This document shows, piece by piece, positions 24,306 to 64,000 of a DNA stretch of 64,000 nucleotides; the first letter of the stretch is position 1; every line of letters starts with the position of its first letter. Where the stretch lies: contig OX638340.1 in the NCBI GenBank assembly GCA_951812955.1, forward strand, positions 2,816,001 through 2,880,000, written 5' to 3'. Made by a program: the position numbers and the translations under genes. Under the pieces are notes generated by a model, which made no database searches, was not told the DNA's origin, and saw nothing but the letters and a program-made list of their open reading frames with translations. The stretch comes from an uncultured Gemmatimonadota bacterium. Lineage in GTDB: Bacteria > JAAXHH01.

Positions 24306-24369
24306 ACTTCGGTAAAGTCCCGCGCCATGCGTCATAGCGCGGGACGGTCCGATTCAGGGAGGTTATCTA

Positions 24370-43584: not shown

Positions 43585-43588
43585 GATT

Positions 43589-44827: not shown

Positions 44828-44838
44828 TGCGCGGCGGA

Positions 44839-45729: not shown

Positions 45730-45771
45730 GGTGGAGACGAACTCCGGTACGGTCAGGTGACTGGAAGGGAC

Positions 45772-45863
45772 GCTCCGCACAGCGCAATTTCCCGCGACCG
45801 TGCAGCGCGATTTTCTGCTCCGCACAGCGTAGTGTCCCGCTCCGCTCAGCGCAGTTTCCCGCG
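45772..45863. repeat. 3-4 degenerate ~23-bp direct repeats (gctccgcacagcgYaRtKtcccgcg) spanning the stop of the DSD1-like gene and the TauD upstream region
   Basis: Copies at 45772-45796, 45818-45840 and 45841-45863 plus a decayed copy between; the DSD1-like stop (45846-45848, minus strand) lies in the last copy. Confidence 0.7.
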
Positions 45864-46934: not shown

Positions 46935-47145
46935 AGTTCGTTCCTCTCTTGTGGCCTTTACTGATCCAGTCGTCGATCAACCTTAACCTCGACAGCGGAT
47001 TCCGACAGAAACAGATATTACACAGAACTGATTATTCGTGATTTTCAAAGCTATGCAGACTGCTAATTGTGTATCATATCGGTACCGCCCGTCAAGGACG
47101 TTAAGCGTGTCTCGGCTGACGGCCGCAATCCTTCTTTCCCGCGGT

Positions 47146-48603
47146 TCAACCCCGGTACCGAACATCCTTGTAAGGTGAAACCAGGGGTTCGTCCGGACAG
47201 TGCAGCCTGCCCTTTACCACCCATCCGCAGTCCCGCGCCTCGAGTTCCGCCACGAGAAGGCCCTGCCAGGCTTCGATCTCGTCTCTGAAGGCCGGATCGT
47301 TCACCATGTTCCGGCACTCGCCGGGGTCCGCGTCCAGGTCGAAGAACTGTTTCCGGCCGATGCGCGGCAGCCAGACGAACTTCCGATGGCCGTCCGTCAC
47401 GTACTGCATTTCCTGTTCGGGCGAATAGCACCAGCAGTGCTCTCCGTGAATGTGGGTTCTCCAGCCGTCCGCGTTACCCCGGATTAATGGAAGCAGGCTG
47501 TGCCCGGTCACGGTGGGCGGCCTGTCCACGCCGGCCGCGTCCAGGATCGTCGGCATGATGTCGCGAAGTTCGGCCACGCCATCGGCGACGGGTGACGTCA
47601 CTTCCTCGCTCCACCCGGCAGGCGGGGAGATGATCAGCGGTATCCTCGCGCTGCCCTCGTAGGCGTAGGTCTTGCGCCAGAGATGGTGATCTCCGACCAT
47701 GTCGCCGTGGTCGGACGTGAAGACGACCCAGGTGTTGGACCAGGCCTCCGGCTCGTATCGATCCATCCAGTTCTTGAGACGCCCGATCTGCGTGTCGATG
47801 AACGAGATCTCTCCGTAATAACCGGACCTGCCGCGATGTATGCGCTGATCCGACTGCCTGCCCCGCCACGCGTTCACGTCCGTTGCGTCGAAGGGCACGT
47901 CGTGCATGTCCGCCCAGTCGCCGATGAACGGCGGCGGGGTCTCCCGGTCGTGGTACAGGTCGAAGTACCAGCCGGGGGGGACGTACGGCGAATGAGGCCG
48001 GGCGAAGCTGACATTGAGAAAGAAGGGTCTCGAACGGTCCCGCTGCGAAATGTAATGGATCGCCCGGCTCATGGTCCATGCGGTCGGATGAAGGTATTCC
48101 TCCGTGTGCCAGGGGCGTCCGATCCAAGCATTCCAGTTGACCCCGTGATCGTCCGGTGTGATGTCCCGTTTTTTTTCCCGGTCGAACCACTGGCGGTATT
48201 CGTCCCGCAGGCCCTGGGCGAACATCCGGCCGGATTCATCCAGCTCCGCCGACTGAAAACCCATGTCCGCCCGTTGCGGAGAGAAGTGTCCCTTGCCCAC
48301 CAGGTGGGTCGCATACCCGGCATCTGCCAGCGTGCCGGCCAGGGTATGAGGGAAGTCGTTGGGTATGGGCCCCTGTCCCCGCCCCATACCGAGGACGCCC
48401 GTGTGCCACTGGTCCATGCCGGTCATCACGGTCGACCGGGCGGGTATGCAGGAAGGTACCGCGGTGTAAGCGTGGGGAAACCGCGTGCCCCGCGCGGCCA
48501 GGTGATCCAGGTTCGGGGTTTCCACCACGGGATGCCCGTCGCAACCCAGACTGTCTCCGCGCATCTGGTCCGCCATGATGAATATGACATTGGGAAGGGA
48601 CAC
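47146..48603 (-). CDS. Sulfatase (formylglycine-dependent; no signal peptide, possibly choline-sulfatase-like cytoplasmic enzyme)
   Basis: PNVIFIMADQMRGDSLG (metal-binding DQ), formylglycine motif C-I-P-A-R in AVPSCIPARSTVMTG, downstream sulfatase core. Probable GTG start at 48603 (AGGAG 9 nt upstream). No N-terminal hydrophobic leader is visible. Confidence 0.7.
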   Translation of the reverse strand: MSLPNVIFIMADQMRGDSLGCDGHPVVETPNLDHLAARGTRFPHAYTAVPSCIPARSTVMTGMDQWHTGVLGMGRGQGPIPNDFPHTLAGTLADAGYATHLVGKGHFSPQRADMGFQSAELDESGRMFAQGLRDEYRQWFDREKKRDITPDDHGVNWNAWIGRPWHTEEYLHPTAWTMSRAIHYISQRDRSRPFFLNVSFARPHSPYVPPGWYFDLYHDRETPPPFIGDWADMHDVPFDATDVNAWRGRQSDQRIHRGRSGYYGEISFIDTQIGRLKNWMDRYEPEAWSNTWVVFTSDHGDMVGDHHLWRKTYAYEGSARIPLIISPPAGWSEEVTSPVADGVAELRDIMPTILDAAGVDRPPTVTGHSLLPLIRGNADGWRTHIHGEHCWCYSPEQEMQYVTDGHRKFVWLPRIGRKQFFDLDADPGECRNMVNDPAFRDEIEAWQGLLVAELEARDCGWVVKGRLHCPDEPLVSPYKDVRYRG

Positions 48604-48836
48604 GGAAGTTCGCTCCTGGTTCAACGTAACGTTACAATGGAGACATCGGGGCCGGGCTTCATAACTTATACTCCATCCGTCTTCTGTCAAGAATCGCCGT
48701 GCCCGTGCGATGGCCGGTGCGCCCGCGGTTAAACCCTTAAACCGCTTGACATTGGGCTTATCTCTTTCACATTTCACTGATGACCTGAAAACGGAAGTCT
48801 GGACAGGATGGCCCTGTACAAGGAGGCATACGCCCT

Positions 48837-50051
48837 ATGGCTGCGCGTGAAAAACCCATTTCCGACGAAGAGCGGGCTTTCTGGGCGGATATACGCCGTC
48901 AGTTCTACCTCGAGGACGGCGTGACTTTCCTCCAGGGCGGTTCGGTAGGTCCGTCCGCGAAGCCCGTGATCGAGCAGGTGATCGATTGGTTGCGCCAGGT
49001 GGAGGCGAATCCGCTTTACAACCAGCGTGAGCAGGTCATGGGGTCTCGGGTCGAGGCGGCCCGCGAAAAAGCAGCGCATTTCACCGGTGCTTCGGCCAAA
49101 AACGTGGCCCTGGTGCTCAACACCACGATGGGCATGAATGTACCCGCCCGCGGACTGCCCCTGCAGCCCGGCGGCGAGGTGCTGATGAGTGACCAGGAAT
49201 ACCCCTCGGTCCAGCGCATGTGGGAGCACATGGCCAGGACGCAGCACGTCCTGGTCCGGAAGGTTCCGCTGCCCACGCCGCCCGATTCGCCGCGAGAGAT
49301 CGTAGACGCCTTCGCCGCCCATATCACACCGCGGACCCAGGTCATGGTCTTCTCACACGTCTATTGCACCACCGGTCTCGTGGCGCCGGTCCGCGAACTG
49401 ACTGCCCTGGCCCATGACCGCGGCGCGGTCGCCGTGGTGGACGGCGCGCACGCGGTCGGGATGGTCCCGGTCGACATCGAAGCCTGGGGATGCGATTTCT
49501 ACGCGAGCAGCACGCACAAGTGGCTGCTCGCGCCCAAGGGCACGGGAATCGTATACGTGGCCGATCCTTACCTGAGTTCGCTACCGGCGCCGATCCTGGG
49601 ATACAATACGGCGCCGTTCAGCCACGCGAGACGATTCGACGTGACGGGGACCCACGATACGACCCATTTCGCCGGACTGGGCGCGGCCATCGATTACCAG
49701 CAGGACATCGGATGGGAAGACCGGATCCGGCCCTACTGCCTGGGCCTGGCCCGGTACCTGCGCGAACTGGTCGAGGAGGAGATCGAGGGCGCCCGCATGA
49801 CCGTGCCGCCGGGCTCCGAGATGTCGGGGTTTCTGACCTCCTTCACCATAGACGGGTGCAGCCTCCACCGCATCGTGCAAATCATGTGGGAGGAATACCG
49901 CATCCAGATCGCCGCGACCCGTGCGGGCGATCTACCCGTCTTCCGGATTTCCACCCATTTCTACGACAGTTACGAGGATATCGACCGGTTCATCGATGCG
50001 TTGAAGACCGTGCTTGCCACCCGGCGCGACGAAGTCTTCGAAGACCGGTAA
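48837..50051 (+). CDS. Class V aminotransferase-fold PLP enzyme (isopenicillin-N-epimerase / cysteine-desulfurase-like)
   Basis: PLP-Lys motif SSTHKWLLAPKGTG, size ~400 aa, N-terminal LEDGVTFLQGGSVGP. Confidence 0.6.
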   Translation: MAAREKPISDEERAFWADIRRQFYLEDGVTFLQGGSVGPSAKPVIEQVIDWLRQVEANPLYNQREQVMGSRVEAAREKAAHFTGASAKNVALVLNTTMGMNVPARGLPLQPGGEVLMSDQEYPSVQRMWEHMARTQHVLVRKVPLPTPPDSPREIVDAFAAHITPRTQVMVFSHVYCTTGLVAPVRELTALAHDRGAVAVVDGAHAVGMVPVDIEAWGCDFYASSTHKWLLAPKGTGIVYVADPYLSSLPAPILGYNTAPFSHARRFDVTGTHDTTHFAGLGAAIDYQQDIGWEDRIRPYCLGLARYLRELVEEEIEGARMTVPPGSEMSGFLTSFTIDGCSLHRIVQIMWEEYRIQIAATRAGDLPVFRISTHFYDSYEDIDRFIDALKTVLATRRDEVFEDR

Positions 50052-50161
50052 TAGCTTGGCAATTCGGCACGCGAAGCGAAACGCTCCTTGAGAGCGGTCC
50101 GAAGCGAACAAGCTGTCCTGTCCCTGCCGACCCTGCCGTACGCGCGCAAGGTCCCGATCAC

Positions 50162-51547
50162 ATGTTCAGACTCGAATTCGACCGCGGGACCATCCTGGTG
50201 CATGGCGACAGAGCCACGGTGGCCGAGTTGAAGCTTCCGGGCTGCGCCTTTGACCGGCGGGTGTCGCTTTACCGAGCTCCGGCACGGCATTACCGCGAGA
50301 TCATAACGCGGCTGGCCGACCGGGGATTGACTTACCGGGACGACGCCCGGTCCTACGGCAAACTGGACCTGTCCTTTCAGTCGGACCGGTCTCCCTTCCC
50401 CTATCAACAGGAAGCGGTAGACGCCTGGTGGCAGGCGGGCGGCCGCGGCGTGGTCGTGCTGCCGACCGGGGCGGGAAAGACCTTCGTCGCACTGATGGCG
50501 ATGGCGCGGGTCCAGCGCGGCACGCTGGTAGTCGTGCCTACCATCGACCTGATGCAACAGTGGTACGGCGTGATCTCCAGCCAGTTCGATATCGAAGTGG
50601 GACTGATCGGCGGTGGCTACTACGACGTCGAGCCGGTCACCGTGTCCACCTACGATTCCGCGTACCTGCATATGGAACGGTTCGGCCACCGGTTCGGCCT
50701 GGTGATCTTCGACGAATGCCACCACCTGCCGGGACCCTCCTATCTGATGACGGCCGACCTGTCGCTGGCGCCTTACCGGCTCGGGCTGACGGCCACGCTC
50801 GAACGGGAGGACGGCGCGGAACACCAGTTGAAGGACGCGATCGGAGAGACCGTCTACCGCCAGGAGATCCGCGCGCTAAGCGGGGAATACCTGTCCGGCT
50901 ACGAAACGATAAAAGTCAGTGTGCGCCTTTCCCCGGAAGAACGCGAGGAATACCAGGAGGAAAGGAATACCTACCGCGCGTTCCTGGACAGCCACCGGAT
51001 CTCGTTGTCCGGGCCAAATGGATGGGTCCGTTTTCTGGCGGCGACGTCCCGCAGCGAAGAAGGCCGCCGGGCATTCACGGCCTACCGTACCCAGAAGGCC
51101 ATCGCCCAGGGTTCACAGGCAAAGCTGCGCGTGCTGGAAAGATTGATCCGGCAGCACCGCCGCGACCGCATGCTCATCTTCACCAGCGACAACGAAACGG
51201 TCTACCGCATATCGCGCCGGTTTCTCATTCCAGCCATCACGCACCAGACCAAGGTGAAGGAGCGCCAGGAATTGCTGGCGGCGTTTAACGCCGGTGAATA
51301 CCCCTTCCTGGTCACCTCCCGCGTACTGAACGAAGGGGTCGATGTCCCCGAGGCCAACGTGGCCGTGGTGCTGTCCGGTTCCGGTAGCGTAAGGGAACAT
51401 GTACAGCGTCTCGGCCGCATTCTCCGGCGTGTCGAGGGGAAGCACGCGATCCTGTACGAACTCGTGGCGGAGCAGACGGGCGAGGAATACGCGAGCTCGC
51501 GGCGAAGGCAGCACAGCGCCTACCGGAAAGCCCCGGAAGGGAGGTAA
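50162..51547 (+). CDS. XPB-like SF2 DNA helicase (ERCC3/RAD25 family)
   Basis: N-terminal damage-recognition-like domain (LEFDRGTILVHGD..), helicase motif I VLPTGAGKT, motif II IFDECHH, motif VI SGSGSVREHVQRLGRILR. Confidence 0.75.
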   Translation: MFRLEFDRGTILVHGDRATVAELKLPGCAFDRRVSLYRAPARHYREIITRLADRGLTYRDDARSYGKLDLSFQSDRSPFPYQQEAVDAWWQAGGRGVVVLPTGAGKTFVALMAMARVQRGTLVVVPTIDLMQQWYGVISSQFDIEVGLIGGGYYDVEPVTVSTYDSAYLHMERFGHRFGLVIFDECHHLPGPSYLMTADLSLAPYRLGLTATLEREDGAEHQLKDAIGETVYRQEIRALSGEYLSGYETIKVSVRLSPEEREEYQEERNTYRAFLDSHRISLSGPNGWVRFLAATSRSEEGRRAFTAYRTQKAIAQGSQAKLRVLERLIRQHRRDRMLIFTSDNETVYRISRRFLIPAITHQTKVKERQELLAAFNAGEYPFLVTSRVLNEGVDVPEANVAVVLSGSGSVREHVQRLGRILRRVEGKHAILYELVAEQTGEEYASSRRRQHSAYRKAPEGR

Positions 51548-51550: not shown

Positions 51551-52801
51551 ATGCTGACGGGTGACCTCCTCCGCGTCCGTTTTCGTAAGGGCCGGATCCA
51601 TCTTCCCTATATCGATGATCAGGATCCCGATCACCTCGGGATCGCCGAAACGCTGATCCGGATTTTCGAAAACCACGAGGGCGGAACCCGCCAGGAACTG
51701 GATGAAGAGCTGGCGGATACGACCGGCAGCGGGACGGAATTCCTGTTTCATCGCGGACTGGCCAAGTTGCTGCGGGACCGCTGTACGTTCGAGTCGGCGT
51801 CACCCGTCGACCCTGCGGATCTTCGAAGGCGGATCTTCGCGGCCGCTGCCGCGGCATACAGCACGGATCAGGTCCGCATCGACCGGGAGGCCATTCTGGC
51901 CGCGGCGGGTGCGCCGGACGCCCTGGATGTCACGCAGGTGGAAGGAACTTTCTACGCCGATCTGAAGGAAGCCGAACGGCTCAAGTCATTCAAGCCCTGT
52001 ACGCCCGGATGGCTCTTGAGCAGGTACAACGTCGCCCTGGCCCAGGCCGCCCTGCTGCGGGCATCCGGAATGGATATGCTCGTGGAAGGAGAAAGTCCGG
52101 CCCGTTATCGTGAACTCTTCCGCAAGATGAAGTTCTTCCGCCTGCTCCACGAAATCCGGCAGACCGGTCCGGGGAAATACCACGTTCACGTTGACGGTCC
52201 CATGTCGCTCTTCAAGTCATCCCAACGCTACGGACTGCAGATCGCCCAGTTTCTCCCTTCCGTGCTGCACTGCCAAACCTGGCAAATCACGGCTTCTATT
52301 GTCTGGGGCGCCGCGCGCCGTGAAGGTGTATTGAAATTGACGCCTGAAACGGGGTTGAAACCGGTAGGCCCTTCTACGGGACAGTGGATACCCGAAGAGG
52401 TGGCCTGGCTCGAAGACCGGTTTAACCGGCTTAAAACGGATTGGCGCATTTCGGCCGGGACGGACGTCATCGACCTGGGCGGCCAGGGTGTACTGGCTCC
52501 CGAGTATATCCTCACCCATCTACCCACCGGGATGAGCGTATACCTGGAATTCCTCGGATACTGGCGCTCCGAAGGTGTGAGGACGCGCCTGGAACTGCTG
52601 GGCAGATACGGCCCTCCGAACATGATCCTGGCGATTTCCGCGGAACTGGGCGTGGATGAAGAAGCATCGACGGATATTCCCGGCGAGGTCTATGCGTACC
52701 GACGGACACCCGTCGCCCGCGACATCCTGAAAATCCTGGAAAACATGGTTAAAACCCATCCAGGCGCATCGGCGGGAACCCTGGATTTGTTCGACCCCTA
52801 G
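51551..52801 (+). CDS. DUF790-family protein (Bax1-like nuclease partner of XPB)
   Basis: ~415 aa immediately 3' of the XPB-like gene (4-bp gap). N-terminus MLTGDLLRVRFRKGRIHLPYI... matches the DUF790 start seen next to bacterial XPB genes. Assignment by synteny and remembered consensus. Confidence 0.5.
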   Translation: MLTGDLLRVRFRKGRIHLPYIDDQDPDHLGIAETLIRIFENHEGGTRQELDEELADTTGSGTEFLFHRGLAKLLRDRCTFESASPVDPADLRRRIFAAAAAAYSTDQVRIDREAILAAAGAPDALDVTQVEGTFYADLKEAERLKSFKPCTPGWLLSRYNVALAQAALLRASGMDMLVEGESPARYRELFRKMKFFRLLHEIRQTGPGKYHVHVDGPMSLFKSSQRYGLQIAQFLPSVLHCQTWQITASIVWGAARREGVLKLTPETGLKPVGPSTGQWIPEEVAWLEDRFNRLKTDWRISAGTDVIDLGGQGVLAPEYILTHLPTGMSVYLEFLGYWRSEGVRTRLELLGRYGPPNMILAISAELGVDEEASTDIPGEVYAYRRTPVARDILKILENMVKTHPGASAGTLDLFDP

Positions 52802-52816: not shown

Positions 52817-55576
52817 TTGATTTGTCCGTCCGGCGCGTTTAAGGTTATGGCCATGTCGTCCCATCCCTCCATTTCCGTTTCGTCACCCTGGATTACCCGT
52901 GGTTTCGAGGCGTTCCGCCAGGGAACCTTCGGCAATGGCGGCCAGAATCTCTACGTGTCCCGAGCTGGTGTCCTGCAGCGCATACACCAGTTCGACCTGG
53001 ACCGCGACGGCCACGTCGACCTCGTCTTCTGCAACAGTCAGAACCACGGTGAAAAGCCTCCGGTAACCGTGTACCATGACGTACTCGGCCAGACCGCTTC
53101 CAGGTCCCTTCCATCCGACGGCGGAAGAACCGGAGTCGTCGCCGATCTGAACGGGGACGGATACGACGACCTGGTCGTCGGCATGTTCTACAACGGGATC
53201 CGGCGGGACCTCAACGCGTATCTGTACTACGGCGGTCCGGACGGGTTCGGCGAGCGGCGCGTGCAGTACCTGCCTGTTCCTTTTTGTACTTCGGTTGCCG
53301 CCGGGGATTTCGACGGGGACGGGCTGCCGGACCTGGCCTTCGTTTCCGACGGCGGCGTGCGGCTTTTCCTCCAGACTTCGTTGGGATTCGAGCCTAAAAG
53401 ATACCGGGATCTCGACATAGCGGCCAACCAGGTCGCGTCCGACGACCTGGACGGCGATGGTTACGCGGACCTGGTCGTGCGTGCCGCGGAGGGATTGGTC
53501 AGTATATACTGGGGTGGTCCGGACGGGTTAGACCCGGACAGATCGTCTCAGATACCCATCGATGCCGACCCGTCGGAAGAACCGGATTCAGGCCATGACG
53601 GTTATCCCGAGGATGTCGATCCCGCCGTTCCGCTGGTATCCGTTGTCAGAATCCACGACATCCCCCACGTATTCGTCGCCCGAGCCGCTGCGGCATGCCT
53701 GGCGCCATTCGATAACAGCCGGGAACCCGGTCCACCGCTACGCCTGCCTTGCCGCAATGCGCTTGCCGTTGCCGCGGGCGACCTGGACGGGAACGGTCGG
53801 ACCGACCTGGTCGTGGCCTGCCGGGACCGGCACAATGGGGCGGAGTGTTCGTGGGTGTACCGCGGAACGGTGGACGGTTTCAACGACGCGCACCGTACCG
53901 CGATTCCGAGTCTATTCGCCTGTGACGCGGCCCTGGACGACCTGGACGGGGACGGTCGGGATGAAATCGTTATCTGCCAGACCCACACGCCGGAAAGCTA
54001 TACGTCGGAATCCCGCGTGTACTGCTGGACGGGGGAGGGATTGTCGGCGCCACGGGCCCTGGAGACCCACGACGCCCGGCGGGTACTGATGGCGCGAGCC
54101 CCGGACGATCCCAGGCCGCGGGCCGTCTTCATCAACCAGTTCAGCAGAAACCTCATGGGGGATATCCCCGTTTACATCTATCACGGCAGTCCGGATGGCT
54201 TTTCAGAGGGAAACCGGCAGGAAGTCGCGGGCTGGGGGTCGGTCGAAGCGCTCCGCTGCGACGTGAACGACGACGGGCTGCCGGACTTGATCCTGGCCAA
54301 CGCGTCCGAGAACTCGGTGCGGCAAGATCCCGGATCCTACGTGTACTTCAATCGTGCCTGTACTTTCGGGAGCGGACCCAACCTGCGCCTGCCCACCGTC
54401 CGCGCCCACGGGGTGTGTTGTGCGGATCTTGACCGGGACGGGTATCTCGATCTCGTCTTCTGTGGATTCGACAATCCGGACATCGTGATATTCTATGGAA
54501 GCCAAGACGGGTTCGACACCGAAAACACTGAGCGAATCCGGCTCGAATACGAGGGCGTCGTCTACAAGGACCCTCGATGGATATTCCTTGTAGACCTGAA
54601 TGGCGACGGCTGGCTCGACCTGGTCGTGCCGCAGATCGCGGACGATTACAGCTTCATCCTCTGGGGCGGACAGGAAGGGTTCAGTATGGACCGATGCCAG
54701 GCGCTTTCTGTCTGGCACGGCGCGTGCGCCCGGGCGGCGGACCTTAGCGGGAACGGGTATCCCGACCTGGTCATCGGCGGCCACGAACCTTCCCACGGGG
54801 CCCCCCACGATTCCTTCGTGCACATCTACTGGAACGGTCCGGACGGCCTGCGCGAGGACCGTCGCACCCTGTTGCCCGGCAACGCGGTAAATGCCATGTC
54901 GATCATGGATTTCAACGGGGACGGGTTGCTCGATCTCTTCATCTGCTCCTACCACGACAACCGGGTACGGGACATCGATTCCTTCATTTACTGGAACCGG
55001 CCCGATCTCGGTTTTTCTACCGACGATCGCACCCGGCTGTTCACCCATTCCGCGTCGGGTTGTATGGCCGCCGACTTCGACGGCGACGGTTATGTCGACC
55101 TCGCCATCGCCTATCACAAGGTTGAAGGCGACCACGTAGGCTTCTCCGCCGTCTGGTGGAACGGCTCGGACGGGTTCGACTCTCGACGGGTGACCCGCTT
55201 GCCCACGAACGGCCCCCACGGCATGACCGCCGTACAGCCTGGAAACATGCTGGACGCGGGTCCCGAAGAATACTACGTCTCCGCGCCGCACGAGATGCCC
55301 CATGGCCAGTCCGTCACCGCCATCGCCTGGGAAGCGGAATACGGACCCGGGACCTGGGTGCGCGTCCAGATCAGGCGGGCGGATACGGCGGAGGCGCTGA
55401 ACTGCGCCACCTGGCAGGGATCGTCCGGAGATGATTCCTGGTACAGGCGGCCTGGCCCGGTGTCGTTGCCGGGTGAAGACACCGGGGCCCGGTGGATACA
55501 GTACCGCCTCGCGCTGGGTGCGGAAAACGGAGGCAGTACGCCCAGGGTAACAGAAGTCCGGATCGAAACAGATTGA
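52817..55576 (+). CDS. FG-GAP (integrin-alpha-like) repeat protein, 919 aa, no recognisable signal peptide
   Basis: >12 FG-GAP Ca-binding loops (FDLDRDGHVDLVFCN, ADLNGDGYDDLVVGM, GDFDGDGLPDLAFVS, DDLDGDGYADLVVRA, ...). N-terminus MICPSGAFKVMAMSSHPSISVSS lacks a hydrophobic leader. Begins 16 bp after the DUF790 stop. Confidence 0.65.
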   Translation: MICPSGAFKVMAMSSHPSISVSSPWITRGFEAFRQGTFGNGGQNLYVSRAGVLQRIHQFDLDRDGHVDLVFCNSQNHGEKPPVTVYHDVLGQTASRSLPSDGGRTGVVADLNGDGYDDLVVGMFYNGIRRDLNAYLYYGGPDGFGERRVQYLPVPFCTSVAAGDFDGDGLPDLAFVSDGGVRLFLQTSLGFEPKRYRDLDIAANQVASDDLDGDGYADLVVRAAEGLVSIYWGGPDGLDPDRSSQIPIDADPSEEPDSGHDGYPEDVDPAVPLVSVVRIHDIPHVFVARAAAACLAPFDNSREPGPPLRLPCRNALAVAAGDLDGNGRTDLVVACRDRHNGAECSWVYRGTVDGFNDAHRTAIPSLFACDAALDDLDGDGRDEIVICQTHTPESYTSESRVYCWTGEGLSAPRALETHDARRVLMARAPDDPRPRAVFINQFSRNLMGDIPVYIYHGSPDGFSEGNRQEVAGWGSVEALRCDVNDDGLPDLILANASENSVRQDPGSYVYFNRACTFGSGPNLRLPTVRAHGVCCADLDRDGYLDLVFCGFDNPDIVIFYGSQDGFDTENTERIRLEYEGVVYKDPRWIFLVDLNGDGWLDLVVPQIADDYSFILWGGQEGFSMDRCQALSVWHGACARAADLSGNGYPDLVIGGHEPSHGAPHDSFVHIYWNGPDGLREDRRTLLPGNAVNAMSIMDFNGDGLLDLFICSYHDNRVRDIDSFIYWNRPDLGFSTDDRTRLFTHSASGCMAADFDGDGYVDLAIAYHKVEGDHVGFSAVWWNGSDGFDSRRVTRLPTNGPHGMTAVQPGNMLDAGPEEYYVSAPHEMPHGQSVTAIAWEAEYGPGTWVRVQIRRADTAEALNCATWQGSSGDDSWYRRPGPVSLPGEDTGARWIQYRLALGAENGGSTPRVTEVRIETD

Positions 55577-55618: not shown

Positions 55619-56479
55619 ATGCGCGCAGAACAGGTCGTCCTCGACTCATTGCGCCAGTGGGCGGAAGAGCATGACAACATCCGCGGCATGGTCCTGACGA
55701 GTTCCCGGGTCAACGAAGACGCGGTCCTGGACCTGATGTCGGACTACGACGTGGAGGTCTATGTGACCGACCAGCAGTGTTTCGCGGGGGGCGATGAATG
55801 GCTGGAGGCATTCGGCCCCGTGTTAATACGTTGGCCTGCGTGCCCTGCCTGGGACGAGGAGGGCGGGTTGTATCGCCTTGTGATCTATGAAGACGGCGTA
55901 CGGATCGACTGGGGAGTAAAAAAGGTTGAGCAAATGAAAAGGTTCAATGGTCCTTCCCAACCCTACAGAGTGCTGGTGGACAAGGACCGGCGCGTCGAAA
56001 ACCCGCTCCAGACGAGTTATGCCGGTTTCAACATCACCCGGCCTTCGAAGACAGAATTCGATTCGATGATGCATGACTTCTGGTGGGACCTCACCTACGT
56101 GGCGAAAAGTCTCTGGCGCGACGAAATTTACTGGGCGAAGTACATGTATGGCAGACGGCACTTCAAGGAGCTCGAAAAGGTCATCGAATGGTACATCGGC
56201 ATGCATCACGAATGGTCTGTCAACACCAACAAGCACGGCCGGTGGTTCAAGCGGTACCTGGACGAAGATACGCTGGAAGAAATCGATTCCACCTTTGCGG
56301 GCGCGGATATCAAGGAAAACTGGACCGCGCTGTTCAACATGACCCGGCTGTTCAGGCGGCTTTCCGTCGCGGTCGCAGATGAACTGGGTTTCGATTACCC
56401 CCATGATTCCGACCGGCGCGTTACGGCGTACATGGACAAGATCAGGCGCCTGGACCGGGACGCGGAGGATTTCGTATGA
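55619..56479 (+). CDS. Aminoglycoside 6-nucleotidyltransferase (ANT(6)/AadK-like, streptomycin adenylyltransferase family)
   Basis: Collinear similarity to Bacillus AadK: MRAEQVVLD.. vs MRSEQEMMD.., SDYDVEVYVTD vs QDYDISYFVTD, LVIYEDGVRIDWGV vs IILFEDGNKLDLTL. Full-length ~286 aa. Confidence 0.65.
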   Translation: MRAEQVVLDSLRQWAEEHDNIRGMVLTSSRVNEDAVLDLMSDYDVEVYVTDQQCFAGGDEWLEAFGPVLIRWPACPAWDEEGGLYRLVIYEDGVRIDWGVKKVEQMKRFNGPSQPYRVLVDKDRRVENPLQTSYAGFNITRPSKTEFDSMMHDFWWDLTYVAKSLWRDEIYWAKYMYGRRHFKELEKVIEWYIGMHHEWSVNTNKHGRWFKRYLDEDTLEEIDSTFAGADIKENWTALFNMTRLFRRLSVAVADELGFDYPHDSDRRVTAYMDKIRRLDRDAEDFV

Positions 56480-56614: not shown

Positions 56615-58153
56615 ATGAGGGCACTGCTCGAGAAACTGAATATCGAGGCACTGAACGCCGGGGCCTGCACGGGGATGGACGGCTGGATTCATGGCGAGGG
56701 GCCGATTCTGACGTCATACAACCCGACGACCGACGAACCGATCGCGGGCGTGCGGCAGGCGACACCCGAGGTTTACGACCGGGTAATCGAACACGCCCGC
56801 GGGACCTTCGAGGACTGGCGGATGATACCCGCTCCCAAGCGGGGCGACATGGTACGGGACCTGGGCAATATACTGCGGGCGTACAAGGAACCGCTGGGTG
56901 AACTCGTTGCCCTGGAAATGGGAAAGATCCGCGTGGAAGGCATGGGGGAAGTCCAGGAGATGATCGACATCTGCGATTTTGCCGTCGGCCTTTCGCGCCA
57001 GTTGTATGGACTGACCATCGCGAGCGAACGGCCCAGTCACCGCATGAGCGAGCAGTGGCACCCGCTGGGGGTGGTCGGCATCATTTCCGCCTTCAACTTT
57101 CCGGTCGCGGTCTGGTCGTGGAACGCTTCCCTGGCCTCGGTGTGCGGCGACGTCACCGTGTGGAAGCCCAGCGGGCAGACGCCCCTTACGGCCGTAGCCA
57201 CGCAGCACCTGTGCAACCGGGTCATGGCGGACCACGGCGTGGACGGCGTGTTCAACCTGGCCATCGGGCGCGGCAGCGACGTGGGCAATCTCATGATCGA
57301 CGACGAACGGATCCCCATCGTTTCCTTCACGGGTTCTACCGCCACCGGCAAGACTGTGGCCTCGCGGGTCGCGTCCCGTTTCGGCAAAACGATTCTGGAG
57401 CTGGGCGGCAACAACGCGATCATCGTAACCGAGAACGCCGACCTGGAACTGGCTGTGCCCAGCATCGTGTTCGGCGCCGTGGGGACGGCCGGACAGCGGT
57501 GCACGTCCACGCGGCGTATTATCGGGCACAGGAGCCTGACGTCAACCCTGATCGATCAGCTGGCCCGCGCATACGCACAGGTTCCAATGGGAGATCCTGT
57601 CGATGACACTACCCTCATGGGACCGCTGGTCACGGCCGACGCGGTGGACGACATGATGCAGGCCATCGAGCAGGCGAAATCCGAGGGCGGCGAGGTGATA
57701 ACCGGTGGCAACCGTCGTCCGGACCTGGGCTCCAATTTCGTCGAGCCGACGATCATCCGCATGCCAGCACAGACGGATATCGTGAAGCAGGAGACTTTCG
57801 CACCGATACTCTATATCCTTGAGTATGATACCATGGACGAGGCCCTTATCCTGCATAACGACGTGCCCCAGGGCCTGTCGAGCGCAATCTTTACCGACAG
57901 CCTGCGCCAGGCGGAACGCTTTCTCTCCGCCGGGGGATCGGATTGCGGCATCGCGAACGTGAATATCGGCACTTCGGGCGCCGAGATCGGCGGGGCCTTC
58001 GGCGGCGAAAAGGAAACGGGAGGCGGGCGCGAGTCGGGTTCGGACGCGTGGAGAGCCTACATGCGCCGCCAGACCAATACCGTCAACTGGTCGACCGATC
58101 TCCCGCTGGCCCAGGGGATCGAGTTCGGCGCCGGTGAATCGGACGATGACTGA
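56615..58153 (+). CDS. Aldehyde dehydrogenase, ALDH7 (antiquitin / alpha-aminoadipic-semialdehyde / piperideine-6-carboxylate dehydrogenase) family
   Basis: Family-specific stretch GEVQEMIDICDFAVGLSRQLYG. Glu in ELGGNNAIIV and catalytic Cys in GQRCTSTRR. N-terminus KLNIE...NPTTDEPIA typical of AASADH. Confidence 0.75.
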   Translation: MRALLEKLNIEALNAGACTGMDGWIHGEGPILTSYNPTTDEPIAGVRQATPEVYDRVIEHARGTFEDWRMIPAPKRGDMVRDLGNILRAYKEPLGELVALEMGKIRVEGMGEVQEMIDICDFAVGLSRQLYGLTIASERPSHRMSEQWHPLGVVGIISAFNFPVAVWSWNASLASVCGDVTVWKPSGQTPLTAVATQHLCNRVMADHGVDGVFNLAIGRGSDVGNLMIDDERIPIVSFTGSTATGKTVASRVASRFGKTILELGGNNAIIVTENADLELAVPSIVFGAVGTAGQRCTSTRRIIGHRSLTSTLIDQLARAYAQVPMGDPVDDTTLMGPLVTADAVDDMMQAIEQAKSEGGEVITGGNRRPDLGSNFVEPTIIRMPAQTDIVKQETFAPILYILEYDTMDEALILHNDVPQGLSSAIFTDSLRQAERFLSAGGSDCGIANVNIGTSGAEIGGAFGGEKETGGGRESGSDAWRAYMRRQTNTVNWSTDLPLAQGIEFGAGESDDD

Positions 58154-58223
58154 CCGGAAAAAACCTTACAGCGTTTCACGAGTCAACAAGAGGAACGGAA
58201 ACCGACCATAGGGGGGACAACCT

Positions 58224-59093
58224 ATGTCATCCAACGGGGCGTTTATCATAGACAAGAACCTGGGCGCGCGCCTGGACGAGACCCAGGCGGATCTGCCGAA
58301 GGCCAATTCCGATGGCGAAGCGGTCGTCCCGCCGACGGATGAACAGAAATACCTGTTCGACAAGGACGGCTGGCTCCTGTTGCCCGGGGTGCTGTCCGAG
58401 GCCGAATGCGTGGAGATGCGGGCGTTCTGCCTGCAGTTGCACCATGATCCGGAGTCCATCCCCGAACCCGAGCGTTCTGTCCTCGGCGGACCATTACAGC
58501 GCCTGACGGACCACCCATTGGTGGTGGGTTTCATGAACGAATTTCTGGCCTACCCCGGCCTGTCCAGCCAGATTTGCTACGGTTTCCGTCAGGAATCTGC
58601 CAGTTTATTCTACCGGGAATCCGGTGACGGCGCCTTCGGCCCTCATAACGGCAACGGCATGCTGCGTTTCCCGGGCGACTCCCATCTCTACCGCTGTATT
58701 CCTGGCAAGGCCAACTCCGCGCTGACAAGGGTGGTCTGGGAACTGAACCCGGTCACGGAGGGGAACGGAACGCTGCTGGTATCCGGAAGCCACAAGGCCG
58801 TCTTCCCCGCGCCGCCGTCCATACAATCGCCGGACTCGCCGATCTGGAACACCTATACCTGTCCGCCAGGATCGTTGATATTCTTCACCGAGGCCCTCAC
58901 CCACAGCGGCAGGCCCTGGATCGACGAGGAGCATCCGCGGATCGCCGTCTTCAGTTGCTACAACTCTGTCAACAGCAAGTGGCACAACTGGGACCCGCAC
59001 CCCGAGCTTCTTGCTTCCATGCCGCCCCTCAGACAGACCCTCTACCGTCCGGTTCACGTGGCTGGCAACCTGGTGGGTGGCGAGGTACACTGA
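58224..59093 (+). CDS. PhyH-like Fe(II)/2OG dioxygenase family protein
   Basis: N-terminal YLFDKDGWLLLPGVLSEAE and distal-His segment VVWELNPVTEGNGTLLVSGSHKA resemble the PhyH/ectoine-hydroxylase fold; the HxD motif is not canonical. Confidence 0.45.
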   Translation: MSSNGAFIIDKNLGARLDETQADLPKANSDGEAVVPPTDEQKYLFDKDGWLLLPGVLSEAECVEMRAFCLQLHHDPESIPEPERSVLGGPLQRLTDHPLVVGFMNEFLAYPGLSSQICYGFRQESASLFYRESGDGAFGPHNGNGMLRFPGDSHLYRCIPGKANSALTRVVWELNPVTEGNGTLLVSGSHKAVFPAPPSIQSPDSPIWNTYTCPPGSLIFFTEALTHSGRPWIDEEHPRIAVFSCYNSVNSKWHNWDPHPELLASMPPLRQTLYRPVHVAGNLVGGEVH

Positions 59094-59123
59094 GCGTGGT
59101 TTCGATCAGGGTGCCGGGGAACT

Positions 59124-59159
59124 GGGATTGCCGATCAAACAGGGATTGCCGATCGAACA
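59124..59159. repeat. 18-bp tandem duplication (gggattgccgatcRaaca x2) 30 bp downstream of the PhyH-like stop
   Basis: Copies 59124-59141 and 59142-59159, one mismatch. Confidence 0.8.
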
Positions 59160-59183
59160 TGGGAGGCCCTGAAGAAAGGGAAG

Positions 59184-59203
59184 GCCGGCGTATTCAAGCC
59201 GGG
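59184..59203. terminator. Possible bidirectional hairpin between convergent genes (GCCGGC-gtattcaa-GCCGG)
   Basis: 5-6-bp GC stem read directly; no flanking U-tract, so weak. Confidence 0.2.
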
Positions 59204-62200
59204 ATTCTGAGGTAATCTTCTTCCAGTACCTTGCCCAGACAGTGCAGAAGATAATCGGCGTTCTCCCTGTCGAATACCAGGGGAGGCTTGATCTTCAGGA
59301 CATTGTGGAAGGGGCCGTCGGTACTGATCAGGACTCCGTGGTCCCGCATCCGGTTGGCCACGTAGGACGCCTGGTTCCCGGCGGGTTCCAGGGTGTCCTG
59401 GTCCAGTACGAGTTCCACGCCCACGTAGAGCCCCAAGCCGCGGACGTCGCCAATGACCGGGTGGTCCGGCGCCAGGGCGCGAAGGCCTTCCAGCAGGTAG
59501 CCGCCCACATCCAGGGCATTGGACTGCAGTCCTTCTTCCTCGATGACGTCCAGTACCGCCAGGCCGATGGCGCAGGAAACCGGGTTGCCGCCGAAGGTGT
59601 TGAAATACTCCATGCCGTTGTCGAATGCGCTGGCGATCTCCGGCGTGGTTACCACCGCGCCCAGCGGGTGGCCGTTTCCGATGGGTTTCCCCAGGGTGAC
59701 GATATCCGGCACCGCGTCCTGGGTTTCAAATCCCCAGAAATGAGTGCCCACCCGTCCGAATCCCACCTGTACCTCGTCGGCGATGCACACGCCCCCCGCT
59801 TCACGCACATGCCGGAAGGCCTCGCTGAAATATCCGTCCGGCAACACGATCTGTCCCCCGCAGCCGGGCAGGGATTCGGCGATGAACGCGCTGATCCCTT
59901 TGTCGTTTTCCGCGAGCGATTCGATGCATTTGCGTACATGATCCGCGTACCGCGCACCGGTCGCCTCGGAATAGCCCTTGTACGGACCACGGTAAGGATC
60001 GGGAAGAGGCATTTTGTGGACGTGGGACGGTGCGCCGGTGCCGCCCGGTCCGTCGAACTTGTACGGACTGATATCGATCAGGGACGTCAGGTTGCCGTGA
60101 TAGGCGCCGTCGAGGATGAGCAGGTCGTTCTGTCCGGTATAGCACCGCGACAGGCGCAGGGCGAGGTCGTTCGCCTCGCTACCGGAGTTCACGAAGTAAC
60201 ACACGCTGAGGGAGTCGGGCAGTTTCGCGCAGAGGCGTTCGGCGTAATCCACGAGATTGTCGTGCAGGTAGCGTGTATTGGTGTTCAGGACCGCCATCTG
60301 GCGGTGACTCGCGGCAACCACCCTTGGATGGCTGTGGCCCACGTGGGGGACGTTGTTCACGGCGTCCAGGAACGCGCGCCCTTCATCGTCGTAAAGGTAC
60401 TGCATGTGGCCCCGGACGATCTTGAGGGGCCGCTGGTAGGATATGCTGAGGGACCTGCCGATGTGCTCGCGGCGTGAGGACAGGATATCCCGCGAAGACC
60501 GCTGACCCGGCGGGAAAGCCTCGGAAGGCACGCCCAGGATGACGTTCGGGTCGGGTGAGAGATCCAGCCAGACATTCCGTTGCCCGGGCCCACCCACGCC
60601 GGGGAAATCGCCCCGGTTGCCCAGCATGTCCGTGACAATCTGGAAATGCAGGTGGGGCGGCCAGCCGCCGTTGACGGAAGAGTCGCCGAGTGCGGCGAAT
60701 CGTTCTCCCCGCCCGATCGGTTTGCCCTCGAGCAGACCGGTGAGCGATTCGGCGCTCAGATGCCCGTATAGCGTGTAGAACACCTGGCCGGTATCTTCCG
60801 TGGCATGCTCCAGAATGATACAGGGCCCGTAGTCCAGCGGCTGGGTGTTGTTCTGAAAGCTGTGGACCGTCCCCTCCAAGGGGGCGAAGACCGGCGACCC
60901 GGCAGGAAGGAACACGTCCATCCCCAGGTGGATGGTCCTGCGTTCCGGCATCTCGTCGAAGTCGACGATGAACTGGTCGGCGGTGTAGACCTGTCGGGCC
61001 TCGTTGTACCGCCCGATCCCCGCTTCCGCCCCCGCGGATTCCATCTGCTTGAATATGTCCCCGGCAAGGTCTTCCACGTCAACCGAACCCCCCAGCAGAG
61101 CCCGATCGGGACTTCCCACGCTGAGATCAAACACGAGCGCAGTGGATAGATCCACGTCCGGACCCATGACAGGTGCGAATGAACCGCGTCTCGACGCCAG
61201 GTACGATGCGATCCCGGCGGTCTGCGGACACGGCGGCAGTTGACAGGCGTCCCGGAACAGGTATTCCGCGAAGGATGGGGAGACGTCCTCCAGTTTTTCG
61301 ATTAGGTCCCAGGCATGCTTTTCGCTGACGGAGAGGTAGGTGTTCTCCGGTTCGGCGACCTGCTGATGAGCCGAGATGGCCACGCTCATGCACAGCCGCA
61401 TCATGGCGCAGTGGTAGAACAGTTCAAATTCCAGGTCTGACAGAGGGTGCTCCCGGTGGTAACCCGCTACCAGATGGGCGGCGGCCGACAGGGGCTCCGC
61501 CTTGCCGAGCATGACATAGGCGGCGGCGACGGCGGGTTCGAAGAGCACGCAGGAATGCGCCATGTCTCCGAAATCGATCAGGCCTGCCACTTGCGGTTTG
61601 CTCGAAGCCGGATCTTCACGTCCGTTTGATTGGACCCGGCGGACCAGGCGGACCAGGATATTCTGGTCGTTTGCGTCGTTTTGTATGAACTGGCGGGGGA
61701 GTGACGAGAGACAGGGAACAACGGTACGCTCGTACGAGTCGCAGAATCGTAAGACCAGCCTTCGTCGGTCAGCGTCCGGGATATGGCCCGCATATCGTCG
61801 AACGACATCCGGCCCGTTGTCCATGTTCCATATGAGATCCGGCTGTTTCTCTGTGTGGCAGAAGTCCGTGAAAGCACGGGTCATCCTGCCCAGAAAAGCA
61901 CCGAGATCCCGCAGCAGATCGGGACTGTGAGGCTTAATCTCACACAGCGGGCGGCCCTCGATGTACGTCAGCATCCGGACCAGGTGGCGCAGTCCGTCCC
62001 TCCCGTCGATCCGCGTAATGCCGCTGCCCTCCTTCGTCCGGCAGACCCGAGGCCACTCGGTCCCTTCGAATCTACCGGCCAGGTGATCCAGGGCGGCGTG
62101 CTGCAGTTCGAGAATGCTCCGCTGCTCGCCCGCGCCGGAAATCTTAAGGACGAAAACCTCGCCGTCGTCGGTGGTCAGACGAAAGTTCTGATCCCGCTCG

Positions 62201-62319
62201 CTCGGCAATGCGCGCAAGTCCCCGGATACTCCGTACAGGGAGCGGGCCAGTTCAGCAGCTTCTTCGGGGGAGAAGCGGGGACGATTTTCGGCGATTCCGG
62301 ACAAATCGGTCCTTCTCAT
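59194..62319 (-). CDS. Tri-domain fusion: aminoglycoside-phosphotransferase-fold kinase (hydroxylysine-kinase-like) + M23/LytM-like domain + class III aminotransferase-fold phospho-lyase (AGXT2L/ETNPPL/PHYKPL-like)
   Basis: N-terminal APH fold ([11 protein letters not shown]; catalytic loop [12 protein letters not shown]). Middle M23-like segment (LYGHLS...[10 protein letters not shown]). C-terminal class III PLP enzyme ([18 protein letters not shown]..., [33 protein letters not shown]). 1041 aa. Confidence 0.7.
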
Positions 62320-62401
62320 GGATGGTATGTCAAGGTAGTGGTTTCCGGACAGGCGCGGCAGTTACGAGACGCTGTCCCGGTGCGTTCAACCAGCCTGTCG
62401 G

Positions 62402-63313
62402 TTACCGCGCATAATCATCGTCACTGTTTCCGCGCCAGTCGGGGAGATATCCCTCTGTATGTCCGAATCCGTACGAGGGCCCGATCTGGTTGACCGACTT
62501 CCACGGCCAGGCCTGGCCGCCGATAAGGCGGAATTCGTCCCCCTTGCCGCAAAGCCAGTAGAACATATGGGCCACGTAGCGGGCCAATCCGTGTCCCCCG
62601 TAGTCGGCGTGCCTGAAGTCGAATTCCGGTTCGGTGATCCAGTCCCTCGCCGGCGGCACCGTGCGCCAGTAGCTGAACTTCAGCATGTGCCGCAGGCCAC
62701 TTGCGGTGGATTCGCCACGGCGGTGCAGGATGCTCTGCGAGTGCAGGCCGATGGTACCCGCGGGGCCCGAACACAGCACGCCCCGTTCCTCCTGCGTTCG
62801 CCGGGTGTTTCGGATATGAGATCCGGGCGTGACCTCGGTCGGCCCCATTTCATCGGGGGTGTCTTGCGGAAAATAGAACACCTCGACGAAATTGACCTCC
62901 GGCCCGAACACGTGGTCGGCGTCATGGTGCCACGGCTGTGATTCCTTTGGACATTCGATCCTGTGATTGCTTACAAGCACCGGCAGGCCCACGTGGCGGC
63001 CGAGCAGCGAGCGCAACGCACCCGCAAGCACGGGATTAAGGAGGACGTGTTCGATGAACCAGTCTTCGAGCAGAATCGAACTCGGTTCATGCGTATCCCG
63101 AATACGGATCAGTTCTTCCTCGGTCATCCCGTCGGGCAGGTAGCACGGATTGACGGGGATCTCACCGTTCAGCCATGCGCAGGTGCGCCGGTTGATCTCA
63201 TCGGGCACGACACCTTCGAAATGAAGGTAGCCCTCCCTGCAGAAGCGCAGTACCTCAGTATCGGAAAGTGAAGGAGCGCACTCGAAGGTCCGTCTGGACG
63301 CGTCGTAATGCAT
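62402..63313 (-). CDS. PhyH-family Fe(II)/2OG dioxygenase
   Basis: WHHDADH (HxD), EVTPGSH (distal His), N-terminal LRFCREGYLHFEGVVPDEI typical of PhyH. Confidence 0.55.
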   Translation of the reverse strand: MHYDASRRTFECAPSLSDTEVLRFCREGYLHFEGVVPDEINRRTCAWLNGEIPVNPCYLPDGMTEEELIRIRDTHEPSSILLEDWFIEHVLLNPVLAGALRSLLGRHVGLPVLVSNHRIECPKESQPWHHDADHVFGPEVNFVEVFYFPQDTPDEMGPTEVTPGSHIRNTRRTQEERGVLCSGPAGTIGLHSQSILHRRGESTASGLRHMLKFSYWRTVPPARDWITEPEFDFRHADYGGHGLARYVAHMFYWLCGKGDEFRLIGGQAWPWKSVNQIGPSYGFGHTEGYLPDWRGNSDDDYAR

Positions 63314-63468
63314 GTTTTATTCCTTGATTATGGCGTTGAGCGAGGTCAACTTCCCGTACGAACCTGTCGGTAGTTCAATGTTGAAATATGCAGTGCGGAT
63401 CGCCGGAGGGACAAGGAATTTCCGGTCGGTCGCATCCATTGCTCGGTTTAAAGAAGGAGTACGAAACC

Positions 63469-64000
63469 ATGGGTATTTACGAAAACATCGGCGTGCGCCC
63501 GGTAATCAACGCCATCGGCACGCCTACGCGTTACGGAGGAGCCCTCCTAGACCCGGATATCATGGAGACCATGCGCGTAGCCTCCCGGGAGTTCTGCCTC
63601 CTGGACGAGTTGCACGAGAAGGCCGGAGAGAAAGTCGCCGGTATGCTGGGCGTGGAAGCGGCCTACGTAACCGCCAGCGCCGCGTGCGGCCTGGTCATCA
63701 CTACGGCGGCCTGCATGACGGGGACTGACCCGAAGCGTATACGCCAGCTACCGGACACGACTGGGATGCGTGACGAGGTGGTCGTCCAGAAGACCCACCG
63801 GATCGCCTACGACCAGGCCATTCGGCTGACTGGCGCCAGACTGGTCGAGCTGGACGATTCGGACGGCCCCCCGGTCGAGGCCATGCGGGCGGCCATCGGG
63901 GACGGAACGCGCGCGGCGGCGGTCTTTTACCTGGGCAAGAACTTCAAGAAACCGAAGTCCGTCCCGCTGGAACAGGCCGTGGCTATGGCCCACGCCGTGG
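63469..64000 (+). CDS. SelA-like / DgaE-family PLP-dependent enzyme (5' partial, runs off window end)
   Basis: N-terminus IYENIGVRPVINAIGTPTRYGGALLDPDIMETM...AAYVTASAACGLVITTAACM resembles the L-seryl-tRNA(Sec) selenium-transferase-like superfamily (e.g. D-glucosaminate-6-phosphate ammonia-lyase). Remembered consensus only. Confidence 0.4.
   Translation, partial: MGIYENIGVRPVINAIGTPTRYGGALLDPDIMETMRVASREFCLLDELHEKAGEKVAGMLGVEAAYVTASAACGLVITTAACMTGTDPKRIRQLPDTTGMRDEVVVQKTHRIAYDQAIRLTGARLVELDDSDGPPVEAMRAAIGDGTRAAAVFYLGKNFKKPKSVPLEQAVAMAHAV

Follow-up and report, generated by a model that had tools for sequence, protein, structure and literature searches.

A kinase, M23 and phospho-lyase-like fusion protein in an uncultured Gemmatimonadota bacterium and its lineage-restricted association with ALDH7 and PhyH-like genes

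The animal route through HYKK (AGPHD1) and then PHYKPL (AGXT2L2) enters lysine catabolism at the semialdehyde that is oxidised by ALDH7 (PMC5200902); it employs an APH-fold kinase and a class-III-fold pyridoxal phosphate (PLP) phospho-lyase, two separate proteins, and delivers 2-aminoadipate semialdehyde (AASA) from 5-hydroxylysine to ALDH7A1. ETNPPL (PDB 6TOR), a paralogue of PHYKPL, and the Arthrobacter phospholyase A1RDF1 (PDB 5G4I) act on phosphoethanolamine as stand-alone enzymes of about 440-500 residues, without a fused kinase or M23 domain. In the RMM locus (Rhodococcus/Mycobacterium microcompartment) an aminopropanol kinase, an amino-alcohol-phosphate phospho-lyase and an aldehyde dehydrogenase are encoded by separate genes. 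Bacterial kinase-lyase fusions, called ‘bi- or tri-functional’, are said to have given Veiga-da-Cunha et al. in 2012 a clue to the animal enzymes. Later papers cite that work as a comparative-genomics discovery. Here we describe a 64,000-nucleotide stretch of contig OX638340.1 (assembly GCA_951812955.1; referred to below, at its full length, as the window) from an uncultured Gemmatimonadota bacterium, which encodes at 59194-62319 on the minus strand a fusion protein of 1041 residues with a kinase, a Peptidase_M23 and a PLP phospho-lyase-like domain. The scheme that we propose for it uses the same types of kinase and lyase as the animal pathway and likewise yields AASA for ALDH7; it differs in that both activities are fused with M23 between them and in that the substrate is predicted.

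A scan with profile hidden Markov models gave the domain order APH (residues 35-289, 54.4 bits), then Peptidase_M23 (463-562, 49.5 bits with a gathering score of 28.7), then Aminotran_3 (631-1031, 241.6 bits), as had been proposed in a preliminary description of positions 56615-64000. On the minus strand these correspond to an N-terminal APH-fold small-molecule kinase domain (about residues 1-380; 61180-62319), an accessory module containing the M23 domain (about 385-600; 60520-61167, with the Pfam core at 60634-60933) and a C-terminal class-III aminotransferase-fold domain of the phospho-lyase type (about 605-1041; 59197-60507). The AlphaFold2 model of the whole protein has a mean predicted local distance difference test score (pLDDT) of 88.1 and a predicted template modelling score of 0.79. 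The fusion matches the NCBIfam model NF004799/PRK06148 (‘hypothetical protein’) end to end, residues 10-1034 covering profile positions 5-1010 of 1015, and its score of 1283.9 bits exceeds the curated cut-off of 1128, so that the three-domain architecture is already catalogued. PRK06148 is a curated model with no function assigned, and the protein in the window shows no difference from it.

The search returned more than 1700 homologues, of which the best 120 all have the three Pfam families. A search of representatives clustered at 50% identity, in which the best 150 clusters all scored above 668 bits, contained at least 132 full-length three-domain clusters among these 150 best-scoring representatives. 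The family occurs in Latescibacterota, Gemmatimonadota, Chloroflexota, Acidobacteriota, Rhodothermales, Desulfobacterales, Nitrospirota and Thorarchaeota. By the fusion, the nearest genomes are metagenome-assembled genomes (MAGs) of Candidatus Latescibacterota (80-83% identity), and one metagenome contig reaches 97%; the exact sequence from the window is not on record and these close relatives were used for comparison. The literature searched held neither a characterised bacterial fusion nor a comment on its M23 domain, and the protein is an additional member of a catalogued family without an assayed bacterial representative in that literature.

The C-terminal domain is most similar to human ETNPPL (519 bits, 56% identity over 424 residues) and then to A1RDF1 (333 bits, 42% identity), whereas the best epimerase, decarboxylase or transaminase scored about 200 bits. 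It groups with the phospho-lyases and not with true transaminases, in agreement with the preliminary description, and elimination is its predicted activity. The PLP lysine K878 lies in a GKPIGNGH motif and is conserved. The kinase domain carries the catalytic DxxxxN loop and the metal-binding IDFGD motif, and D215, N220, D249 and D252 vary little or not at all in the family; both the PLP lysine and the kinase catalytic residues persist across the 132 diverged three-domain representatives. By fold comparison the nearest structures to the kinase domain are small-molecule hydroxyl kinases, among them 6ef6, the aminopropanol kinase of the microcompartment. The RMM kinase is only 16% identical to the kinase domain, and the RMM locus has no M23, ALDH7 or PhyH partner. 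A sequence search of the PDB with the kinase domain gave zero matches, and in NCBIfam only a weak homoserine-kinase match (27.8 bits) was obtained. Removal of the amine of an amino alcohol by a kinase and then a phospho-lyase is well supported as a prediction from these similarities and conserved catalytic residues.

The gene for the aldehyde dehydrogenase (ALDH; 56615-58153, plus strand, 512 residues) had been placed 1 kb from the fusion and assigned to the ALDH7 clade, and both statements hold. The two stop codons are 1040 bp apart, and the protein scores 776.8 bits against NF050084, the equivalog model for L-piperidine-6-carboxylate dehydrogenase (cut-off 730). Its best PDB matches are the mycobacterial Pcd (6rtr, 622 bits) and human ALDH7A1 (about 554 bits) compared with 213 bits or less for other ALDH families, and the catalytic motifs ELGGNNA and GQRCT are present. 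Judged by its sequence it is a true ALDH7, that is a predicted piperideine-6-carboxylate / 2-aminoadipate-semialdehyde dehydrogenase.

Taken together, the fusion would be a cytoplasmic amino-alcohol-degrading enzyme. Its APH-fold kinase would transfer phosphate to the hydroxyl that neighbours a terminal amine, and elimination of phosphate, then of ammonia, by the PLP domain would leave an aldehyde, a reaction that would require no amino acceptor. The constant company of ALDH7 in this lineage points to AASA as the product and therefore to 5-hydroxylysine or a close lysine derivative as the most likely substrate; ALDH7 from the convergent operon would then oxidise AASA to 2-aminoadipate. AASA is an inactivator of PLP that ALDH7 detoxifies (PMC11018352), and a PLP lyase would on this account profit from having the dehydrogenase encoded nearby. 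We infer the reaction, the substrate and any M23 activity from homology, conservation of catalytic residues and gene company. Our confidence in the whole scheme, from kinase to 2-aminoadipate, is evenly divided; 5-hydroxylysine itself is a plausible substrate here, and collagen as its source is speculation. The preliminary description had proposed a collagen-derived route; Latescibacterota typically live as symbionts of sponges, yet collagenase genes were absent from a large survey of sponge MAGs.

All of the open reading frames (ORFs) of the preliminary description are present in the window. The ALDH7 gene is followed after 70 bp, on the same strand, by the gene of a PhyH-like protein (PhyH_A; 58224-59093, 289 residues), and this gene and that of the fusion are convergent with stop codons 100 bp apart. 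Upstream of the fusion by 82 bp and also on the minus strand lies the gene of a second member of the PhyH superfamily (PhyH_B; 62402-63313, 303 residues). Promoter and terminator scans gave counts not above those in shuffled sequence. To see how far this arrangement extends in the family, we compared 80 genome loci carrying the fusion, with 1165 kb of flanking DNA. ALDH7, PhyH_A and PhyH_B stand beside the fusion in only three of them, all from Latescibacterota, and these three also share two unrelated genes, of an ANT(6)-like nucleotidyltransferase and an FG-GAP repeat protein. The 48 same-strand genes that adjoin the fusion are heterogeneous, and aldehyde-handling genes (an ALDH, aldo-keto reductases) occasionally adjoin it in other lineages.

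Among closer relatives the picture is different. The ALDH7, PhyH_A and fusion genes form a module in the clade of the window (loci L001-L003, L081, L091, L096 and L097). In L087/L099, with a fusion 67% identical and a GC content of 0.41 as against 0.61 in the window, the order DgaE-like gene, PhyH_B, fusion, PhyH_A and ALDH7 is kept, and the ALDH7 orthologue of L087, in unchanged position, is 78% identical. On the P0036 contig a fusion 63% identical is convergent with ALDH, PhyH and aldo-keto reductase genes while the other flank differs. In L098/L101/L121 (GC about 0.50; L098 3492-7931, L121 3305-7926) an arginase-family gene, ALDH7, a DUF6785/6784 gene and PhyH_A are followed on the opposite strand by a sulfatase gene and the fusion. 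The inserted DUF6785/DUF6784 protein has 656 residues and separates ALDH7 from PhyH_A, and L098 and L101 alone have an unannotated ORF of 585 or 530 residues after PhyH_A. L139 has the same upstream part and its sequence stops within PhyH_A. A partial module is found in a Zixibacteria MAG, where the genes of PhyH_A and an aldo-keto reductase lie opposite a fusion-type lyase domain that is truncated and 77% identical. Counting the loci with at least 3 kb downstream for the fusion and at least 3 kb upstream for ALDH7, PhyH_A orthologues of at least 72% identity have the fusion in 6/6 loci and ALDH7 in 6/7, whereas homologues of 55-70% identity have the fusion in 0/31 and ALDH7 in 0/30. The module of ALDH7, PhyH_A and fusion is therefore real and confined to one subclade, with fusions at least 63% identical, in at least four lineages. 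The proposed catabolic island thus stands for these three genes in this subclade, and not for the family, in which 77/80 loci have no ALDH7 or PhyH neighbour.

Such a neighbourhood could also be inherited synteny without functional meaning, the fusion working alone, and the absence of these neighbours from 77/80 loci as well as the synteny of unrelated Bax1/XPB and pyruvate dehydrogenase (PDH)-like genes in L087 and L091 would suit this explanation. The persistence of the module in the P0036 contig and the L098 group despite different flanks and inserted genes, and the sharp, all-or-none division that separates PhyH_A orthologues from their more distant homologues, speak against it, and we consider it improbable.

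PhyH_A matches Pfam PhyH at 27.1 bits and its family is well conserved, with R131, H141, N142, G143, D152, H154, H190, H227 and R239 invariant. In alignment the distal histidine H227 and the arginine R239 match, and the position of the canonical WHxD is occupied by FPGD in one alignment and by Y-R131-E-S in another (probability 42%); a canonical HxD iron motif is not evident in either. The profile-profile alignment of PhyH_A with PhyH_B is weak. From the conserved residues, H141-N-G143, D152, H154 and H227 could form a different metal site. The HxG pattern, as in PhyH_A, recalls Fe/2-oxoglutarate (2OG) halogenases.

Several observations weigh against hydroxylysine as the substrate and against a joint function with ALDH7. 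The best solved match of the lyase is a phosphoethanolamine enzyme, and similarity of this kind cannot tell ETNPPL-type from PHYKPL-type specificity; the assignment of the kinase to the hydroxylysine-kinase type is tentative. Across the family, ALDH7 is not among the neighbours in 77/80 loci and no neighbour family occurs in more than 7 of the 80, and the synteny in L087 and L091 takes in the unrelated Bax1/XPB and PDH-like genes, so that shared ancestry contributes. The family is represented in lineages of soil, sediment and freshwater and in archaea, for which hydroxylysine is no obvious nutrient; taken as a whole it is better matched by a ubiquitous amino alcohol, for example ethanolamine. 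ALDH7 is encoded on the strand of PhyH_A and opposite to the fusion, and its primary partner may thus be PhyH_A. Finally, biochemical data on any bacterial member of the family were not found in the literature searched.

These points lead to an alternative in which the fusion degrades a ubiquitous small amino alcohol, either ethanolamine via phosphoethanolamine to acetaldehyde or 1-amino-2-propanol to propionaldehyde, while the ALDH7-PhyH_A operon is a separate AASA-producing unit and the two are neighbours by theme or ancestry. PhyH_A would then act on a lysine derivative, for example homoarginine, hydroxylating the carbon that bears its distal nitrogen, and give AASA directly. The match of ETNPPL to the lyase, the best in both structure and sequence, the spread of the family over habitats without conserved context, and the 70-bp gap between the co-directional ALDH7 and PhyH_A genes with the fusion convergent to them are all consistent with it, and so is the fact that PhyH_B has among its fold matches KanJ, a PhyH-type enzyme of oxidative deamination. 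There is precedent in plants, where the homoarginine-6-hydroxylase 2-ODD-C23 forms AASA and ALDH7B4 removes it (PMC11018352). This pair of an Fe/2OG oxygenase and an ALDH7 is a possible model, by analogy, for the ALDH7-PhyH_A operon, although 2-ODD-C23 belongs to another oxygenase family than PhyH_A with no similarity shown, and kinase and lyase are not involved. The arginase-family ureohydrolase gene just upstream of ALDH7 in L098/L121 also favours such a unit and hints at guanidino-compound metabolism, for example of homoarginine, in the L098 group. On the other side, the fusion accompanies PhyH_A orthologues in 6/6 loci and in L103 despite insertions and changed outer flanks, which exceeds the expectation for unrelated neighbours, and PhyH_A lacks an evident canonical HxD iron motif. 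We regard two independent units as possible, if doubtful, and keep the joint degradation of 5-hydroxylysine or a close lysine derivative as our working scheme.

The preliminary description had counted two or three PhyH-like oxygenases together with a flanking SelA-like PLP enzyme as parts of the island. Two PhyH-like genes were found in 56615-64000 and a third was not. PhyH_B scores 34.5 bits against Pfam PhyH (gathering score 22), and H129, D131, H197 and R208 are invariant in 59 homologues, corresponding to the HxD...H triad and the 2OG-binding arginine of an Fe/2OG dioxygenase. Its model (pLDDT 86) resembles FtmOx1, TlxI, PtlH and KanJ in fold at 13-20% identity, and these nearest solved structures are generic PhyH-superfamily matches that give no hint of a substrate. 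The SelA-like gene begins at 63469 on the plus strand, divergent from PhyH_B, and is interrupted by the end of the window (5' part, 63469-64000); in a six-frame reading its start codon is preceded by the Shine-Dalgarno sequence GAAGGAG. Full-length orthologues from L001/L081 score 197-199 bits against TIGR01437 (cut-off 385) and 183-186 bits against NF047797 (cut-off 600), by which the protein is a relative of the DgaE-type PLP ammonia-lyases outside the family proper. PhyH_B and the DgaE-like gene belong to the module only in the clade of the window and in L087/L088, the lineage with 67% identity; the claim that they are island parts holds there and nowhere else. In other genomes PhyH_B orthologues do not stand beside the fusion, and PhyH genes are very common in the genomes related to the window.

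Oxygenases next to this enzyme invite the thought of an oxygen-dependent lysine catabolism in which PhyH_A or PhyH_B hydroxylates free L-lysine at C5, the fusion converts the product to AASA and ALDH7 yields 2-aminoadipate, making external hydroxylysine unnecessary. Bacterial Fe/2OG lysine 5-hydroxylases exist (PMC11973848), the ALDH7, PhyH_A and fusion module is conserved, and a lysine aminotransferase was not seen among the 28 ORFs annotated (about 43 kb; 916-27379 and 35406-63728). Against this, PhyH_A has no clear 2-His-1-carboxylate motif, PhyH_B has no close characterised relative and is unlinked to the fusion elsewhere, evidence of similarity to known lysine hydroxylases is absent, and PhyH genes are in any case very abundant in these genomes. 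Hydroxylation of lysine within the module therefore seems unlikely to us, and the scheme that starts from 5-hydroxylysine or a close lysine derivative is retained.

The second distinctive feature is the M23 domain. The known M23/LytM peptidases (LytM, ShyA, lysostaphin type) are secreted or periplasmic cell-wall hydrolases, and they share the HxxxD, YGH and HxH motifs with the fusion; there, in contrast, the domain is internal (residues 463-562), in a protein whose N-terminus shows no hydrophobic leader on inspection, and it is flanked by cytoplasmic enzyme domains of a metabolic enzyme. The segment aligns with phage Gp16, ShyA and LytM at the HxxxD, YGH and HLHF motifs and is modelled by AlphaFold2 as a confident beta-rich domain. 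This motif-for-motif match to solved M23 peptidases and the beta-rich model exclude an alignment artefact. NF004800/PRK06149 matches the segment weakly (17.7 bits), and a conserved GRYNEAR segment precedes the domain within the accessory module. Taking HxxxD and the second histidine of HxH as the zinc ligands, and the histidines of YGH and the first of HxH as catalytic, we found H464, D468, H556 and H558 invariant and H520 kept in at least 90% of 121 homologues of 55-97% identity. The ligands of HxxxD and HxH are thus intact, and the idea that the segment is a degenerate spacer is contradicted by motif residues that are invariant or nearly so.

Conservation extends to more distant members. Of the 132 three-domain representatives (36-55% identity) 105 retain all five metal and catalytic residues, and 114 retain the three zinc ligands; with metal-site residues retained in most members, the module probably binds zinc. 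In the 18 representatives with a decayed site (e.g. P0279, P0290, P0302) the kinase and PLP residues are intact throughout. Ten two-domain representatives of about 785-906 residues (P0315, P0327, P0333, P0347, P0349, P0352, P0367, P0373, P0380 and P0383) lack residues 385-600 altogether, a linker of 37-147 residues taking their place, and the module is accordingly accessory. Unlike the known M23/LytM peptidases, then, some relatives of the fusion have lost the domain or let its site decay. By these comparisons purifying selection acts on the M23 module in most lineages, and the kinase-lyase core can do without it; a step of amide cleavage or substrate binding may be its contribution. In the most ambitious reading, the genes of ALDH7, PhyH_A and the fusion would encode an undescribed oxygen-dependent, acceptor-free route for removing the epsilon-amine of lysine or a conjugate, by C5 hydroxylation through the atypical PhyH-like oxygenase, then kinase and lyase, and M23 would be a third catalytic site, releasing the amino alcohol from its peptide or amide conjugate. 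This we think unlikely as a whole; if true, the fusion would be a three-step enzyme on a single polypeptide.

Upstream of the module the window carries genes unrelated to it: an XPB-type DNA repair helicase (49490-51547, plus strand, 685 residues, with ResIII, XPB_DRD and Helicase_C domains) directly before a Bax1-like nuclease (DUF790; 51551-52801, plus strand, 416 residues), then the FG-GAP repeat protein (52817-55576) and the ANT(6)-like nucleotidyltransferase (55619-56479, plus strand). The helicase/Bax1-like pair keeps its place next to the module in L087 and L091. The ANT(6)-like protein scores 253 bits against Pfam Adenyl_transf and stays below the NCBIfam resistance cut-offs (229.8 vs 450); its gene is confined to the clade of the window, where it is an insertion separating ALDH7 from the FG-GAP gene. 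Its place immediately upstream of ALDH7 is taken in the L098 group by the arginase-family ureohydrolase gene.

Past the point that corresponds to the 3' end of the window, L081 (24-6197) and L087 (72-5649) carry beside the DgaE-like gene a PDH-like E1alpha/E1beta/E2 set, and the same stretch has a PhyH gene with weak ectoine-hydroxylase similarity, a gene for a PduO-type cobalamin adenosyltransferase and a WelO5-family gene, about 8 kb from PhyH_A in both loci. L001 and L091 have a permease there instead, accompanied by a polyketide synthase (L001) or a large autotransporter-like gene (L091). The PDH-like set was considered as a 2-oxoadipate dehydrogenase completing the lysine pathway and set aside, as the genes look like an ordinary pyruvate dehydrogenase. 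The Aminotran_3 gene beside a PhyH_A homologue in L094, considered as a stand-alone phospho-lyase, resembles glutamate-1-semialdehyde aminomutase. In a few distant lineages (L026 7706-13078; L005, L013, L032, L049, L077; L028, L042, L043; L073) other catabolic genes lie directly before the fusion, among them OCD/mu-crystallin and proline-racemase-family genes, a DHDPS-family gene or a prolidase-like amidohydrolase gene, the proline-racemase-family gene being closest to trans-3-hydroxy-L-proline dehydratase, below the cut-off. They are reminiscent of the breakdown of hydroxyproline and peptides. A collagen theme from these hydroxyproline-pathway-like neighbours was rejected, a handful of 80 loci being too few.

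Elsewhere in the window, further catabolic-looking genes lie within 39477-48777, among them a strong PhyH dioxygenase (39477-40322, 118.8 bits), a TauD-family dioxygenase (44839-46323), a sulfatase (47146-48777), an SBP_bac_5 binding protein and an MR/MLE enolase-superfamily gene; the related genomes L082, L084 and L089 have several PhyH and sulfatase genes per 17 kb. At E<=1e-5 no Pfam match was obtained for the ORFs at 21006-24305 (1099 residues), 25451-27379 (642), 2820-4184 (454) and 4788-6362 (524), the first of which comes after a TonB-dependent-receptor-like gene (17920-21012). GC content is 0.55 at 16001-18000 and 24001-28000 and 0.59-0.65 in the rest of the window.

Two points set this locus apart within a family whose members still carry the annotation ‘hypothetical protein’ or ‘aminotransferase’: the lineage-restricted module of ALDH7, PhyH_A and fusion, and the conserved M23 active site. 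The latter poses a puzzle, as a complete M23 site lies inside a cytoplasmic metabolic enzyme in most members and is lost harmlessly to the kinase and lyase sites in a minority; the two-domain and decayed-site relatives are the natural comparison set for the role of M23. The subclade provides the first usable genomic handle on the substrate of the family, since ALDH7 and a specific PhyH-like gene accompany the fusion across several rearrangements. Should hydroxylysine be the substrate, a modified amino acid characteristic of the animal matrix could serve these bacteria as a source of nitrogen and carbon. The nutrition of symbionts would then be concerned, as the nearest relatives, one of which has a label (‘Plut’) that may indicate a coral origin, include Latescibacterota, a phylum known from sponge microbiomes.

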